DNA from: Okeania sp.
GTDB taxonomy: Bacteria; Cyanobacteriota; Cyanobacteriia; Cyanobacteriales; Microcoleaceae
Assembly (NCBI RefSeq): GCF_035285525.1
Contig: NZ_JAYKGW010000225.1
Coordinates: forward strand, 1-7,576
Direction of reading: 5' to 3'
DNA length: 7,576 nucleotides
Under the pieces are notes generated by a model. The model was not told the DNA's origin. It worked only from the letters and a program-made list of their open reading frames with translations, and ran no database searches. This document shows, piece by piece, positions 3,093 through 7,576 of this stretch (its first letter is position 1; each line of letters opens with the position of its first letter). The translations under genes were made by a program, and so were the position numbers.

Positions 3093-3899
3093 GTGAAAAC
3101 AGACAGCATTTTCTATGAACTATTTCTCACATTTCCAGAGAGTTTTTTTGAATTAATTGGTATTAATAAACAGGAAGCTAATAATTATAAATTTACTTCC
3201 CGTGAAGTCAAACAATTAGCATTTCGTATGGATGGATTATTTATGCCTAAAAATAATAATCCAGCTAAACCGTTCTATTTAGTAGAAGTACAATTTCAAC
3301 CCAAAAATGAATTATATTATCGTATTTTTACAGAACTTTTTCTGTATTTCAAACAATATTGACCCATTCATCCTGGGAGGGTAGTAGTCATCTATCCAAG
3401 TCGTAGTATTGAGAGGGAAGAAGCTCATCAATTTGGAGAAATTTTAAGTTTAGAAAGAGTCCAACGAATCTATTTAGATGAGTTAAAATCTAATTCATTA
3501 GGAGTAGGAATTGTTAAACTGGTAGTAGAACCAGAAGAAACCGCAGTCGATCTGGCTAAGTCGTTAGTTGAAAAATCTAAAGCTCAATTAACAGATCCAG
3601 TCAGACAACAAAATATTATCGAATTATTAGAGACGATAATAGTTTATAAATTACCAGAAAAAAGTCGGGAGGAAATTACAGCAATGTTTAGTTTAGGTGA
3701 TTTGAAACAAACTAGATTTTATCGAGATGCTTTTGCTGATGGTGAACAACGAGGAGAACAAAGAGGCCAACAGAAGGCCAAAGAAGAAGCAGTTACTCGA
3801 TTGCTCAAATTAGGATTGAGTTTAGAGGTAATTGCTGAGTCTTTAGATTTACCTTTGTCTGTTGTTCAAGAAATAGCTAATTCTGCTAATAATAATTAG
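3093..3899 (+). pseudogene. Rpn-family / cyanobacterial DUF2887-type PD-(D/E)XK nuclease (putative transposase) homologue interrupted by an in-frame TGA at 3360-3362
   Basis: The listed ORFs 3093-3362 and 3684-3899 share one frame. I translated 3363-3683 by hand and found no further stop, so this is one 268-codon reading frame with a single TGA. The N-terminus MKTDSIFYELFLTFPESFFELIG, then FRMDGLF...YLVEVQFQ (a D...ExQ nuclease-like motif), VVVIYPSRSIE, and the C-terminal LGDLKQTRFY...LLKLGLSLEVIAESLDLP module match my recollection of this multi-copy cyanobacterial family. The start is GTG. Confidence 0.8.
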
Positions 3900-4004: not shown

Positions 4005-4244
4005 ATGTTTAGTTTAGGCGATCTGAAACAAACTAGATTTTATCGAGATGCTTTTGCTGATGGTGAACTAATTGGAGAACAACGAGGTGAAGAAATAGGA
4101 GAACAAAGAGGCCAACAGAAGGCCAAAGAAAAAGCAGTTCCTCAATTGCTCAAATTAGGGTTGAGTTTAGAGGTAATTGCTGAGTCTTTAGGCTTACCTT
4201 TGTCTGATGTTCAAAAAATAGCTAATTCGGCTAATAATAATTAG
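4005..4244 (+). CDS. Stand-alone duplicate of the C-terminal module of the upstream Rpn/DUF2887-like gene (79 aa); possibly a gene remnant
   Basis: MFSLGDLKQTRFYRDAFADGE...QKAKE.AV..LLKLGLSLEVIAESL.LPLS.VQ.IANSANNN is nearly identical to residues encoded at 3684-3899, plus 8 extra residues in the GEQRG repeat. Nucleotide similarity runs 3972-4263 versus 3651-3917 and includes sequence past the stop codons. Expression is unknown. Confidence 0.4.
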   Translation: MFSLGDLKQTRFYRDAFADGELIGEQRGEEIGEQRGQQKAKEKAVPQLLKLGLSLEVIAESLGLPLSDVQKIANSANNN

Positions 4245-4502: not shown

Positions 4503-6713
4503 CTAAGGATTTAAAAAGTCTAAATGATTCCCATGTTTTGCCCGTAAAGATGCGACAGAACCTTCCAATTCTAACTTTCCATGATTCAATAAAATAATCC
4601 ATTCTGCTCTACTAATAACCCTTGGTCTATGACTAATAAAAATTGTTGTTTTCCCCCGACGATAAGATAATAAACTTTCCAAAACTTCGGACTCAGCAAT
4701 CGGGTCTAAACCGGAAGTTGACTCATCTAAAATTAATACAGAGGGGTCATTAATAATACCTCTTGCTATTGCTAAACGTTGCCTTTGTCCGCCAGAGATA
4801 TTCGCTCCAAATTCTCCTAAAACTGTTTGATATTTATCAGGTAAACGACTAATAAATTCATCGGCTCCAGAAATTTGACAAGCTTGAACTATTTGTTCAA
4901 ATGTTACCCCCGGCGCTGCTAAATGGAAATTTTCAATAATCGAACGACTCCAAAAATGAGCATCTTGAGGAACTAATACAACTTGTTTTCTAAAAGAATT
5001 TATATCTAAATCTTGCAAATTATAAATACCAATTTGCACATTACCAGATTGCACTGGATATAAACCAGCAATTAATTTAGCAACTGTACTTTTTCCACAG
5101 CCAGACTGACCAATTAAAGCAATAGATTTACCACCAGGAAACCTCACGGAAAAATTTTCTAATAAATCAATTCTTCCAGCGTAGTGAAAACTAATATTAG
5201 AGCAAATAATATCAGCATTATTCTGAATTTTAGCCTCTGGTTTTTGATGTTTTTCATCAGTTTCTGGAGGATAATCAATTACTTCTGAAAGTCGTTTAGT
5301 TGCAGTCTGAACTTTTGCCAATTCATCCATCAATCCCACTAACGTACTCACCAAACTTGATACATATTGATTCATAGCAATAAAAGCCAATAACTGACCA
5401 ATACTTAATTGTTCAGCAATCACTAAATTACTGCCAAACCATAACAGAAAAATATTACCAATATTACTAACTAAACCGGAAAATACATCATTCACAATTC
5501 CAATTTGAGTAGTTCTCAAACTCAAATTAGCCAACTTGCCAAATCTACCTTGATATTCTTCCCAAAACTGAGGAGCGCTAGAAGTAGTTTTGAGAGTCAT
5601 TGCACCTTTAAAAGTTTCTACTAAAACACCCTGAGTTTCTGCTTCTAAAGCAAATAAATTTCTAGTTTTTTGCTGTAATATTGGCAACAAAGCAATAGTT
5701 GATAAAGTCATAACTACCGCCATAAAAACAGCAACTATAGTTAGGGAAAAACTATAGATACACATCACAATCACAGAAACTAAAGCAATAAAAAATTGAC
5801 TAGGCAAACTTACAATTACTTGGGAAACTAACTGATTAATCTCTTTAATATCTGTCAACCTGCTAACAATTTCACCACTACGTCGCGTTTCATAATAATT
5901 TAATGGCAAACGCAAAATTTGTCTGCCAAATTCCATCACTAATCCTAACTCCAAACGTTGAGCAAAATGAGCAATCATATTAGATTGAACTAACTCCAAA
6001 CAACTGCTAAATATATTCATCACAATTACAGCAATTACTACACTGGTAAGTAATTGAAAATCGCCCCTAACTAACACATCATCAGTAAGAATTTGCACCA
6101 AAAAAGGAGAAGCAATAGAAAGTAAACCTAAAACAATATTTAGCAAAAATACTTGAATAATAATTTGTCGATAATACCAAACTCGTCTGAGTAATCTGCT
6201 AATATTACTTACCTTTTCATCAGCCTCAGAAAAAAACCTTTTAGCATCAGGTTCTACTAATAAACAAACCCAATCTTGCCAAGCTTCAGCTAATTCTTTT
6301 GCCGACAAAAAACGAACTCCAATCCCAGGGTCAGCAATCACATATTTATCCCCTTGTCTACCATACAATACTACCCAATGATAGCCTTGCCAATGAATAA
6401 TTGCTGGTAAAGGAGCTTGGTCAATTTTATTTAAAATTCCTGGATTTGCTTTGACAGACCTAGCATTAAAACCAATACTATCTGCACCTTGTTTTAAACC
6501 TAATAATGTGGTTCCTTTTTGATTAGTACCTATAGTTTCTCTAATTCGATTAATTGTTAAATTACGACCATAATATTTAGCAATAGAAGCTAAACAAGCA
6601 GCTCCACAATCTTCCTCACTTTGTTGGAGAATTAAGGGATATTTATTAAAGTTATTTACCTCTCGTTCAGTAGATGCTTTTGGTAATATTGGTACTGGTA
6701 CAATATCTAACAT
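4503..6713 (-). CDS. Peptidase C39 domain-containing ABC transporter (PCAT; double-glycine peptide processing and export ATPase/permease)
   Basis: 736-aa ORF. The N-terminal C39 domain has Gln30, Cys36 (LQQSEEDCGAACL, codon 6606-6608), His112 (YHWVVLYG, 6378-6380) and Asp128 (VIADPG, 6330-6332). The central part is hydrophobic and consistent with a type I exporter TMD. The C-terminal NBD has Walker A GQSGCGKST (5085-5111), signature ISGGQRQR, Walker B VLILDESTSGLD and H-loop FISHR. Confidence 0.97.
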   Translation of the reverse strand: MLDIVPVPILPKASTEREVNNFNKYPLILQQSEEDCGAACLASIAKYYGRNLTINRIRETIGTNQKGTTLLGLKQGADSIGFNARSVKANPGILNKIDQAPLPAIIHWQGYHWVVLYGRQGDKYVIADPGIGVRFLSAKELAEAWQDWVCLLVEPDAKRFFSEADEKVSNISRLLRRVWYYRQIIIQVFLLNIVLGLLSIASPFLVQILTDDVLVRGDFQLLTSVVIAVIVMNIFSSCLELVQSNMIAHFAQRLELGLVMEFGRQILRLPLNYYETRRSGEIVSRLTDIKEINQLVSQVIVSLPSQFFIALVSVIVMCIYSFSLTIVAVFMAVVMTLSTIALLPILQQKTRNLFALEAETQGVLVETFKGAMTLKTTSSAPQFWEEYQGRFGKLANLSLRTTQIGIVNDVFSGLVSNIGNIFLLWFGSNLVIAEQLSIGQLLAFIAMNQYVSSLVSTLVGLMDELAKVQTATKRLSEVIDYPPETDEKHQKPEAKIQNNADIICSNISFHYAGRIDLLENFSVRFPGGKSIALIGQSGCGKSTVAKLIAGLYPVQSGNVQIGIYNLQDLDINSFRKQVVLVPQDAHFWSRSIIENFHLAAPGVTFEQIVQACQISGADEFISRLPDKYQTVLGEFGANISGGQRQRLAIARGIINDPSVLILDESTSGLDPIAESEVLESLLSYRRGKTTIFISHRPRVISRAEWIILLNHGKLELEGSVASLRAKHGNHLDFLNP

Positions 6714-6822
6714 AATAATTAAATTTTTAAATTAAAAATAATAAGTAAGCAGTCAGCTATCAGCTTAATTGCCTTTGAAAAAAGCAGTTATAGCAATCCT
6801 AAATAGGTTGTAGTATTTTATA

Positions 6823-6878
6823 GTAGGGGTTTGGTCTCCAAACCCAATTTATAAGGGATTTGGAGACCAAACCCCTAC
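6823..6878. repeat. Head-to-head pair of the GTAGGGGTTTGGTCTCCAAA element (20-bp perfect inverted repeat, 16-nt spacer)
   Basis: gtaggggtttggtctccaaa (6823-6842) and tttggagaccaaacccctac (6859-6878) are exact reverse complements. The same element occurs at 1402-1421. It lies 110-165 nt upstream of the PCAT start codon. Confidence 0.85.
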
Positions 6879-7098
6879 AGATTTTTCTCACATCTCATTC
6901 CTGATTACTATAGCATTGAGTATTAATAGAATTATGTTTCTTAAAAGTTTAGAATAGAAGTGAATTTAACTCCTTCTAAAGTATCCAATTTATAGAAACT
7001 AGGGATTAACCCAAATTCAAAAAGCTAATAGCTAAATACTTATAACGGATAAATTTTACATACAAATAATTCTTTCTATTAATAGACAATTAAATCAG

Positions 7099-7132
7099 AA
7101 AAAAACACCTATAAAATTAATTATAGGTGTTT
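7099..7132 (-). terminator. Rho-independent terminator downstream of the peptide gene
   Basis: The minus strand reads aaacacctataa-ttaatt-ttataggtgttt followed by a T-run; 7099-7105 are seven A on the plus strand. The perfect 12-bp stem is AT-rich with 4 G:C pairs. It lies about 170 nt after the peptide stop codon. Confidence 0.6.
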
Positions 7133-7140
7133 GATTTAAT

Positions 7141-7211
7141 CAGGACTTACGCGAAGAAACCCGGTACGAGCGTAGAAACCGGGTTTCTGGGTTCGCGTGG
7201 CTTTAGTCCTG
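7141..7211. repeat. 71-nt imperfect long hairpin (REP/MITE-like structured element)
   Basis: Nested pairings are caggact (7141-7147) / agtcctg (7205-7211), cgcgaa (7150-7155) / ttcgcg (7192-7197), and gaaacccggt (7156-7165) / accgggtttc (7178-7187). An aggacttac-like end motif also occurs at 2525-2533 and, with one mismatch, at 4358-4366. Confidence 0.7.
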
Positions 7212-7230
7212 TTAATTAAATGTCTCTAGT

Positions 7231-7247
7231 GCGGGAATTTTGCCCGC
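7231..7247 (-). promoter_or_regulatory. Small GC hairpin in the 3' UTR of the peptide gene
   Basis: gcggg (7231-7235) pairs with cccgc (7243-7247) around a 7-nt loop, about 58 nt after the stop codon. No U-tract follows. A stabiliser or pause role is inference. Confidence 0.3.
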
Positions 7248-7304
7248 GACAGGTGTACCTCAACAAAATCGAATCTGCTGTATAATTCCGATATGATATG
7301 GCTT

Positions 7305-7535
7305 TTAGTAGCAACCACCAGGACGGTAGGTAACATGATGGTAGTCATAACCAGGACGACGGTAGCTATAACTTACACTGCGACCATATCCATAATCACC
7401 ATAGTAATAGTCACGGCGACCATAACTTACAGAGCGACTGTAACCATCGCAACCACAACCATGACCACCATTAATAGCAGCAGATTCTTCAGTAGAAATA
7501 TCAGAAAAGAGTTCGTTATTTTGAGTTTCTTGCAT
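7305..7535 (-). CDS. Double-glycine-leader precursor peptide with a Tyr/Gly/Arg-rich repetitive core (predicted PCAT substrate)
   Basis: 76-aa ORF with leader MQETQNNELFSDISTEESAAINGG and core HGCGCDGYSRSVSYGRRDYYYGDYGYGRSVSYSYRRPGYDYHHVTYRPGGCY. The leader matches the L(-12)S(-11)xxE(-8)L(-7)xxI(-4)xGG pattern at I-12, S-11, E-8, I-4 and GG, and has F-15. It is co-oriented with, and upstream of, the C39 exporter. No obvious SD, which is common in cyanobacteria. Confidence 0.8.
   Translation of the reverse strand: MQETQNNELFSDISTEESAAINGGHGCGCDGYSRSVSYGRRDYYYGDYGYGRSVSYSYRRPGYDYHHVTYRPGGCY
7308..7463 (-). other. Predicted 52-aa mature core peptide
   Basis: Hand count over 52 residues gives 13 Tyr, 10 Gly, 7 Arg, 5 Ser, 4 Asp, 3 His and 3 Cys. 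There is an internal 18-residue duplication: RSVSY is encoded twice, at 7422-7436 and 7368-7382, exactly 54 nt apart. Confidence 0.7.
7464..7535 (-). other. Predicted 24-aa double-glycine leader
   Basis: The Gly23-Gly24 codons are at 7464-7469 (acc acc on plus, ggt ggt on minus). Cleavage is predicted between Gly24 and His25. Confidence 0.7.
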
Positions 7536-7576
7536 CGTTTTTGCTTGGGATTTAATTCAATGAATAAGATAGTTTA

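Follow-up and report, generated by a model that had tools for sequence, protein, structure and literature searches.

In 2011, Wang, Fewer and Sivonen catalogued 145 cyanobacterial "bacteriocin" clusters (PMC3140520), and the locus described here is a member of one of the groups in their catalogue. It lies at the end of a 7,576-nucleotide contig of Okeania sp. (NCBI RefSeq assembly GCF_035285525.1, contig NZ_JAYKGW010000225.1; "the window" hereafter means this whole stretch) and consists of a gene for a small peptide with a double-glycine (GG) leader followed, on the same strand, by a gene for a peptidase-containing ATP-binding cassette (ABC) transporter (PCAT). Table S3 of the catalogue gives CDS31, CDS32, CDS33 and Tery_0624 of Trichodesmium erythraeum as group III putative bacteriocin precursors, in a list of open reading frames (ORFs) that carries no remark on composition, family or function, and the same table also places EbfG1-4 of Synechococcus elongatus in group III (PMC3140520). 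CDS31-33 and Tery_0624 occupy exactly the same coordinates as the ORFs that we assign to four precursor types, A, B, C and D, in the T. erythraeum locus (L011), and the peptide of the window is of type D. The locus in the window is the Okeania member of these already catalogued group III GG-peptide/PCAT clusters.

EbfG1-4 are the only group III members known to have a demonstrated function. They leave the cell through the PCAT PteB and are required for biofilm formation; their secretion, as well as biofilm formation, needs the catalytic cysteine of PteB (PMC4997328). Amyloid is formed by EbfG1-3, whereas EbfG4 occurs in the matrix and at the cell surface (PMC9981879). Parnasa et al. state that the mature EbfG1-4 have no homologues in other cyanobacteria (PMC4997328). 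As far as these sources describe it, the S. elongatus PCC 7942 system resembles ours in having four small GG-motif proteins beside a short-type PCAT of group III and unmodified extracellular products of about 6-7 kDa, with no immunity gene reported there or found here. The likeness is taken from descriptions of the system, and it does not extend to the cargo: the cores of our family are of extremely low complexity, rich in Tyr, Arg, Gly and Ser and with terminal Cys residues, and the amyloid hotspot described for EbfG (A-hydrophobic-N-I-small; PMC9981879) is, by eye, absent from them. The searchable literature yielded nothing relevant on tyrosine-rich double-glycine cyanobacterial peptides, on Trichodesmium in connection with EbfG, or on Okeania in connection with bacteriocins.

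Our main reading, to which we give a probability of about 0.75, is that the window covers the 3′ end of a locus for dedicated peptide secretion, conserved in the marine Microcoleaceae clade Trichodesmium/Okeania/Dapis, with the type D peptide as its cargo; the EbfG-like role that we attach to it is a less confident proposal. The group III cluster of T. erythraeum IMS101 is orthologous to it, with a PCAT 91% identical to that of the window and the same leader, gene order, terminator and ancestral spacer; the window differs in coming from Okeania, in holding only the last precursor and the PCAT, and in a spacer with two insertions. As to what defines group III, the PCAT of the window is of the short type, and the full loci of its relatives have several GG precursors and no conserved extra ABC gene; the window, which ends with the contig, has no HlyD-type adaptor, but one stands beside the precursor array in 20 related loci. 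Since the matching Trichodesmium locus was catalogued in 2011, the system is ordinary in kind. The view of a first-pass annotation, made from the letters of the window alone, that the cargo is unrecognisable has to be given up, because the peptide belongs to a small cyanobacterial family and its orthologue Tery_0624 was already on record (PMC3140520); the kinship with Nostocales that it assumed is likewise mistaken, Okeania being a member of the Oscillatoriales, Microcoleaceae.

Other described systems share parts of this design. PCAT1 of Clostridium thermocellum (4RY2) and ComA of Streptococcus (3K8U, 8HF4) have the same three-domain architecture and the same Gln/Cys/His/Asp set and spacing as our exporter, but these are Gram-positive transporters that need no adaptor or outer-membrane channel, whereas the PCAT of this family pairs with a 358-residue HlyD-type adaptor and a leader with Ser at position -7. 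In microcin-type secretion by Gram-negative bacteria, for example in the colicin V system CvaA/CvaB/TolC, a C39 ABC exporter cuts the double-glycine leader and acts together with an HlyD-family adaptor. The export set is alike, but microcin loci include a gene for immunity and encode cores rich in Gly, Ser and Ala with hydrophobic segments, whereas here there is no conserved immunity gene and the cores are rich in Tyr and Arg. Mussel foot proteins 3 and 5 and FUS-type low-complexity domains are Tyr/Arg/Gly-rich and adhesive or phase-separating, and together with the Gly/Tyr-rich antimicrobial NLP peptides of Caenorhabditis elegans they resemble the family in composition (Tyr, Arg, Gly, Ser and Asn) and in size, 5-7 kDa, with no homology.

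Exporter, precursor family and locus architecture

The two ORFs of 76 and 736 residues, their coordinates, the 591-nucleotide gap between them and the 41 nucleotides that separate the peptide ATG from the contig edge are as the first-pass annotation gave them. The exporter is, by sequence, a catalytically complete PCAT, as had also been proposed. Pfam models for Peptidase_C39 (PF03412, 126.8 bits against a cut-off of 22), ABC_membrane (PF00664, 121.8 bits) and ABC_tran (PF00005, 102.4 bits) all match, and the peptidase, transmembrane and nucleotide-binding domains are its only domains, with no N-terminal CAP_ED. A catalytic Cys/His/Asp together with an oxyanion Gln is what separates true PCATs from the C39-like domains of HlyB-type exporters, and Gln30, Cys36, His112 and Asp128 share alignment columns with the same four residues of PCAT1 (4RY2), at spacings of Q-6-C and H-16-D. 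On the ComA peptidase domain (3K8U), Gln30, Cys36 and His112 are matched, but a Gly lies opposite Asp128 and the Asp is one column on. Read by eye, the nucleotide-binding domain has an intact Walker A, GQSGCGKST, the signature motif ISGGQRQR, a Walker B, ILDEST, that includes the catalytic Glu, and an H-loop.

The best solved relatives of the exporter are PCAT1 (4RY2, E 3e-109) and ComA (8HF4, E 1e-95), both with full-length alignment. Among the NCBIfam models, the top ranks remained below their cut-offs, with 466.5 against 853.3 bits for TIGR03796 (NHLP bacteriocin export ABC1) and 425.9 against 523.85 bits for TIGR01193 (bacteriocin_ABC); the exporter is related to both families and a member of neither model. 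Its identity to orthologues is 90-96% in 19 clade loci and 66% in an outlying locus from a Coleofasciculaceae metagenome-assembled genome (MAG), L036.

The 76-residue precursor reads MQETQNNELFSDISTEESAAINGG, then HGCGC...GGCY. Relative to the GG, its leader has Ile at -4, Glu at -8, Ser at -11, Ile at -12 and Phe at -15, and it departs from the classical pattern at -7, where it has Ser and not a hydrophobic residue, all of which had been read correctly at the outset. Among 5.8 billion proteins, a word-indexed search picked out 16 homologues of the peptide at 53-86% identity, from Okeania, Trichodesmium and other Microcoleaceae, and a scan of species-representative genomes gave 27 loci. When all leader-motif ORFs were pulled from 30 related loci, we obtained 83 distinct peptides of four types with a near-invariant 24-residue leader, among them 27 distinct type D sequences. 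The leader ends in INGG in this set and in INGA in one outlying genome, so that GG/GA is invariant, and Ser is found at -7 in nearly all leaders of the family.

Conservation in frame, on which the first-pass annotation had made its case depend, is borne out. The type D leader has a mean pairwise identity of 0.91 and a ratio of nonsynonymous to synonymous differences (pN/pS) of 0.26; leaders across the types range from 0.26 to 0.57, and the cores stand at 0.25 (type A), 0.44 (B), 0.27 (C) and 0.54 (D). These values, all below 1, indicate purifying selection on leaders and cores, and the reading frame is retained in all type D genes although the core varies from 51 to 60 residues. Taken together, frame retention, leader conservation and pN/pS below 1 exclude a chance ORF; judged from these comparisons, the small ORF is a genuine conserved gene.

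Assuming cleavage after Gly24, the core of the window peptide has 52 residues, a computed mass of 6.1 kDa and a pI of 8.8. It contains the motif RSVSY twice, as well as an N-terminal CGC and a C-terminal Cys-Tyr, and its DNA has an internal repeat (7359-7393 and 7413-7447). In the family as a whole, 74% of all core residues are Tyr (29%), Arg (18%), Gly (17%) or Ser (10%); there is no Met or Trp and very little Ala, Thr, Glu, Ile, Lys or Leu. The four paralogous low-complexity types are 31-60 residues long, some of them in several copies, and are cationic (pI 8.8-10.6, net charge up to +12). Common to types B, C and D are an R-x-[V/I]-x-Y motif and a C-terminal Cys-Tyr, the latter in 59 of the 64 type B-D cores and in 26 of the 27 of type D, which also has the N-terminal CGC. 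AlphaFold2, run on a family alignment of 17 sequences, gave a predicted local distance difference test score of 49.5 and a predicted template modelling score of 0.10, with no secondary structure and no confident fold; this outcome fits a disordered low-complexity peptide, although the alignment is shallow. A sequence search of the PDB with the core returned a single chance match, to an antibody (E 0.92).

An exhaustive profile search of 1.84 billion representative proteins found only 25 clusters at E <0.001. In each of the 22 that we retrieved, the leader is similar, the core is cationic and rich in Tyr, Arg, His and Gly, and the annotation is hypothetical; those with a named source belong to the filamentous cyanobacteria Symploca, Microcoleus, Kovacikia and Zarconia. 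L036 (9992-11686), whose HlyD is 43% identical, has three GG/GA-leader peptides with Tyr/Arg/Pro-rich cores that end in a different tail, TVNVKVKVNVDS; similar tails are present in P0027, P0033 and P0036.

The peptide genes also contain ORFs in other frames. Same-strand, frame-shifted ORFs within them would encode very hydrophobic products of 40-51 residues (MVMV...VVAATN), and antisense ORFs would encode products rich in Thr, Ile and Val; examples of the two kinds lie at 4770-4901, 5770-5898 and 7235-7363 of L009, at 9290-9445, 9712-9867 and 10119-10262 of L011, and at 7226-7348 of the window. Most likely, these are by-products of runs of TAT, GGT and CGT codons. We considered whether the hydrophobic ones are hidden immunity genes and rejected the idea, because the window keeps no internal frame-shifted ORF.

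An exact-sequence look-up found no further contig with the peptide and the PCAT on only one contig of 2.7 kb, hence the genomic context was drawn from homologues, using their gene contexts and tblastn searches with the exporter and the adaptor. In its full form, the locus consists of a divergent HlyD-type adaptor of about 358 residues (HlyD_3, E 6.7e-22), the precursors A-B-C-D and, last, the 736-residue PCAT. The genes always follow in the order A-B-C-D-PCAT; D, of which there are one to three copies, lies nearest the exporter, and the arrays hold four to six precursors. This form is found in T. erythraeum IMS101 (L011, NC_008312 1,007,944-1,028,177), in Trichodesmium MAGs, in three Dapis genomes, in Okeania SIO3I5 and in several Microcoleaceae MAGs. 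Type D stands directly upstream of the PCAT and on the same strand in 19 of the 19 PCAT-bearing clade loci, and in the outlying L036 a related GG-leader peptide takes its place, so that each of the 20 related PCAT-bearing loci has a GG/GA-leader peptide upstream of its PCAT in the same orientation. The first-pass annotation had proposed a cognate pair of cargo and exporter releasing a 52-residue product and had named beforehand, as what would speak against it, syntenic loci lacking the peptide; no syntenic locus lacks an upstream GG-leader peptide, and the pairing with its predicted product appears sound.

A split form occurs in seven genomes (Okeania SIO2C9, KiyG1, SIO2B3, SIO1I7 and SIO3B5, O. 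hirsuta and the tar-biofilm MAG08), in which type D and the PCAT are at one site, beside CobN and DUF6887, and the HlyD gene with types A, B and C is at a second, beside glycogen phosphorylase. Therefore, the PCAT must serve types A-C in trans in these genomes. The loci compared for the split were L002/L010, L003/L023, L013, L014, L021, L024 and L026 against L007, L017, L022, L027, L028 and L030-L032. With the PCATs of full loci, that of the window shares 95-96% identity, and with those of the split group about 90%, and the missing upstream part therefore most likely holds precursors and HlyD. It had been suspected from the start that the rest of the locus lies beyond base 7576, and the types A, B and C, extra D copies and adaptor carried by the relatives point the same way: more precursors and the adaptor are most likely to be found there.

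To find conserved neighbours, all ORFs of at least 90 residues from 30 loci were clustered, a threshold under which a smaller immunity gene could escape. The PCAT (21 loci) and HlyD (20 loci) alone proved to be conserved. Neither a tailoring enzyme nor an immunity gene recurs in this set, and within 10 kb the 30 loci have no conserved gene of the radical-SAM, P450, LanM, cyclodehydratase or a similar kind. The lack of a modification enzyme or immunity gene noted for the window itself thus extends to its relatives.

Several neighbours were considered as partners and rejected. An Rce1-like/CPBP gene adjoins the peptide in Okeania SIO2C9 only. A gene for a HEAT-repeat protein of 613-641 residues is found in seven loci and is missing from the window; it lies 1-4 kb downstream of the PCAT in both locus forms (L002 15129-16970, with orthologues in L003, L013, L014, L019, L026 and L029), and the N-terminus of its product is hydrophobic and, by eye, signal-peptide-like. 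A forkhead-associated (FHA)-domain kinase and a PP2C phosphatase reflect the flank synteny of the full-locus group. Finally, a giant tetratricopeptide repeat (TPR) protein with a C-terminal Sulfotransfer_2 domain, 2059 residues long in T. erythraeum, is encoded directly downstream of the PCAT in L011 (12878-19057), L009, L016 and L033, that is, in four loci only, and the window has none.

Putative expression signals and other features of the window

The features of the locus in the window are collected in the table.

Coordinates of the exporter, the precursor gene and the sequence features around them in the window
Feature	Position	Strand	Basis
Peptidase-containing ABC transporter, short-type PCAT, 736 aa	4503-6713	minus	Pfam, structural relatives, orthologues
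Nucleotide-binding domain, ABC_tran, aa 518-667	4713-5162	minus	Pfam; motifs read from translation and alignment
Transmembrane domain, ABC_membrane, aa 187-452	5358-6155	minus	Pfam
C39 cysteine-peptidase domain, aa 24-156, Gln30/Cys36/His112/Asp128	6246-6644	minus	Pfam E 6.4e-37; alignments to 4RY2 and 3K8U
Spacer insertion 2, with dispersed palindrome 6823-6878	6728-7025, approximate	none	Alignment and repeat analysis
Intrinsic-terminator-like hairpin, 12-bp stem CACCTATA...TATAGGTG and T-run	7093-7132	minus	Hairpin scan; conserved in relatives
Spacer insertion 1, with GAAACCCGG/CCGGGTTTC hairpin	7158-7280, approximate	none	Absent from ancestral spacer in alignment
Type D double-glycine-leader precursor gene, 76 aa	7305-7535, including stop	minus	ORF, homologues, purifying selection (pN/pS)
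Core peptide, 52 aa, HGCGCDGYSRSVSYGRRDYYYGDYGYGRSVSYSYRRPGYDYHHVTYRPGGCY	7308-7463	minus	Composition, repeat and motif counts
Leader peptide, codons 1-24, MQETQNNELFSDISTEESAAINGG; predicted C39 cleavage after Gly24	7464-7535	minus	Near-invariance across the family
5′ region of peptide gene, palindrome 3′ arm ACTATCTTA at 7565-7573	7536-7576	minus	Alignment of upstream regions

The spacer between peptide and downstream exporter occupies 6714-7304. In the alignment, the ancestral spacer has about 167 nucleotides, and the 591 nucleotides of the window correspond to it with two insertions. The terminator-like hairpin of the window, also placed at 7103-7132, is kept in the peptide-exporter spacer of the T. 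erythraeum, Dapis and Microcoleaceae loci, and it is also found 3′ of type C and type D genes in L008 and L009. The palindrome of the second insertion is a dispersed element, GTAGGGGTTTGGTCTCCAAACCCCTAC, which is present there as a hairpin pair and again at 1402-1426, between the methionine aminopeptidase and response-regulator genes.

Upstream of the type C and D genes there is a palindrome made of CAAGATAGT, an AT-rich loop and ACTATCTTG. Of its 41 matches, 33 end 29-30 nucleotides upstream of a type C or D ATG, and seven of the remaining eight are the same palindromes read on the opposite strand; examples lie at about 5590-5610 in L009 and 9130-9150 in L008. The window keeps only the 3′ arm, which ends 29 nucleotides before the ATG, because the contig breaks inside the element. 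Type B genes have a different upstream palindrome, TAATTCCT...AGGAATTA. The upstream palindrome could be an operator or a hairpin of the 5′ untranslated region. A search of Rfam found no RNA family in the window.

Codon usage sets the cores apart from the exporter genes. In the core of the window and all peptide cores of loci L002-L036, CGT and CGC account for 89% of Arg codons, TAC for 42% of Tyr codons and GGT and GGC for 88% of Gly codons, against about 24-35%, 0-5% and about 61-70%, respectively, in the PCAT genes.

Elsewhere in the window, positions 1-545 are dense in repeats, with three tandem copies of 45 nucleotides (1-135), two identical copies of 69 nucleotides (335-472), whose cores are inverted relative to the 45-nucleotide set, and a run of octamers resembling CCCATCAC (490-545) that abuts the 3′ end of the response-regulator gene. 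Two direct repeats of 132 nucleotides, 97% identical and starting 155 nucleotides apart, lie at 2555-2841 in the non-coding stretch upstream of the methionine aminopeptidase gene. Between 3093 and 4250 there are fragments of a DUF2887/Rpn-family gene (recombination-promoting nuclease or transposase-like), namely, the N-terminal 89 residues (3093-3362) and a duplicated C-terminal part (3684-3899 and 4005-4244, repeats about 87-93% identical); this gene looks pseudogenised and partly duplicated.

Predicted secretion and possible roles of the peptides

By analogy with solved and characterised PCATs, the acidic 24-residue leader would dock in the C39 domain, where Cys36, His112 and Asp128 would cut the precursor after Gly24, and the ABC core, together with the adaptor and an outer-membrane channel encoded elsewhere, would carry the 52-residue core outside the cell. 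No tailoring beyond possible disulfides is expected. Each precursor gene appears to be its own small expression unit, given the upstream palindrome, the terminator hairpin and the distinct codon usage, and the exporter probably has its own promoter after the terminator. Once secreted, the peptides, cationic, rich in Tyr, Arg, Gly and Ser, capped with Cys and apparently disordered, may act together outside the cell.

What they would do there is a matter of weighing, and we favour a matrix or adhesion role like that of EbfG over that of a bacteriocin. If EbfG is the right analogy, the peptides would be self-associating adhesive or matrix material and not a toxin, a proposal that we put forward tentatively, at somewhat less than even odds. 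It rests on the fixed set of four types in every related genome recovered, the purifying selection, the lack of an immunity gene, the codon bias, the Tyr/Arg "sticker" composition, the cross-linkable Cys and the EbfG precedent. A more particular version, more doubtful still, is that peptides A-D are a secreted "glue": small, cationic and disordered, extreme in Tyr and Arg as drivers of cation-pi association, and cross-linkable by Cys, they might associate with themselves or form coacervates with anionic or sulfated exopolysaccharide and so bundle trichomes, build mats or colonies, or hold particles in Trichodesmium, Okeania and Dapis.

The strongest competitor is the reading implied by the label of the 2011 catalogue, in which the T. 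erythraeum orthologues are putative bacteriocin precursors (PMC3140520): unmodified class II bacteriocins or microcin-like toxins that leave through the same PCAT/HlyD route and kill competing cyanobacteria or bacteria. A double-glycine leader with a PCAT and HlyD is what microcin and class II loci have, the cores are strongly cationic, and types A and C show a weak leader resemblance to the "CTB family bacteriocin" model NF038167, at 17.8 and 13.5 bits, below the cut-off of 32. Gly/Tyr-rich cationic antimicrobial peptides exist in nematodes and arthropods. Bacteriocin loci, however, are typically patchy and diversifying, and here the gene order is fixed in every related genome recovered and the cores are under purifying selection. 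There is also no conserved immunity gene in about 30 loci among ORFs of at least 90 residues, and the cores lack amphipathic and hydrophobic segments as well as Met and Trp, and contain hardly any Leu, Ile or Ala. In addition, EbfG/PteB, the sole characterised cyanobacterial group III system, is not antimicrobial (PMC4997328, PMC9981879). We consider a toxin possible on this balance, and less probable than matrix material.

It is considerably less likely that the peptides are precursors of peptides that are made on the ribosome and modified after translation (RiPPs), with distant or loosely linked enzymes that cross-link Tyr or Cys or sulfate or hydroxylate Tyr. The cores are dense in modifiable Tyr and Cys, with the conserved CGC and C-terminal Cys-Tyr, and cyanobacterial PCATs do export RiPPs whose modifying enzymes are encoded far away, the prochlorosins. 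Nevertheless, none of the loci has a conserved tailoring-enzyme gene within 10 kb among ORFs of at least 90 residues, Nif11 and NHLP models do not match the leader, and the TPR and Sulfotransfer_2 protein found 3′ of the PCAT in four loci, T. erythraeum included, is missing from the window and belongs to a carbohydrate-type Pfam family. Slightly lower again we would rank diffusible signals, that is, quorum or developmental pheromones processed as ComC is by ComA. PCATs export pheromones in Gram-positives, the ComA peptidase domain is among the best structural matches, the window has a response regulator (534-1226), and the FHA-kinase and PP2C phosphatase flank many full loci; but that response regulator is 3 kb off, past unrelated genes, and is not conserved beside the locus, no histidine-kinase receptor gene is conserved in the locus, and four multi-copy low-complexity paralogues of 31-60 residues with deviant codon usage are unlike known pheromones. 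We give next to no credence to the idea that the peptide ORF is a chance product or pseudogene in low-complexity DNA and that the PCAT exports something else. It is true that the core DNA is repetitive, with by-product ORFs in other frames and on the opposite strand, and that the ribosome-binding region of the window, AAGCAAAAA, deviates from the family consensus, GAGGAAAAAA, but the frame, leader and C-terminal Cys-Tyr are preserved over the 27 type D sequences despite their changes in length, pN/pS is below 1, and the position and strand relative to the PCAT are invariant.

Several observations count against the secretion locus with an EbfG-like role that we prefer. The window itself contains neither the adaptor nor other precursors, and the Ser at -7 would be a departure from the hydrophobic residue of characterised leaders. 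The window peptide has no Pfam or NCBIfam match, even at E<=10, and matches no curated bacteriocin-signal, Nif11, NHLP or CTB-family leader hidden Markov model, so that the leader models proposed in the first-pass annotation came back empty. Transcription and translation of the peptide genes are presumed from conservation alone; the codon bias of the cores, compared with neighbouring genes only, is a hint of high expression. In the searchable literature, Tery_0622 to Tery_0626 are unnamed and we found no experiment on family members, and Tery_0622 to Tery_0625 are absent from one Trichodesmium proteome supplement, where Arg-rich cores would give very short tryptic peptides. Finally, the points listed for a matrix role are compatible with an antimicrobial one, because cationic peptides rich in Arg and aromatic residues are typical antimicrobials.

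As the Okeania orthologue of a catalogued cluster, the locus changes little by itself. Nevertheless, the clade of Trichodesmium, a nitrogen fixer of global importance, has a fixed set of four secreted peptides that are extremely rich in Tyr and Arg, and this Tyr/Arg/Gly-rich cargo, on which we found no published study, is a reasonable target for experiments. As antimicrobials, the peptides would form a Gly/Tyr/Arg-rich class unusual for bacteria. Should the secreted "glue" prove correct, bacteria would have an equivalent of the adhesive peptides of mussels, and EbfG would be joined by another, unrelated case of PCAT-exported matrix peptides. More generally, if the peptides are matrix or adhesion factors, they would bear on the cohesion of Trichodesmium colonies and of Okeania and Dapis mats, and the idea that came from EbfG and PteB, in which PCATs export structural "public goods" and not only toxins, would extend to filamentous marine cyanobacteria.

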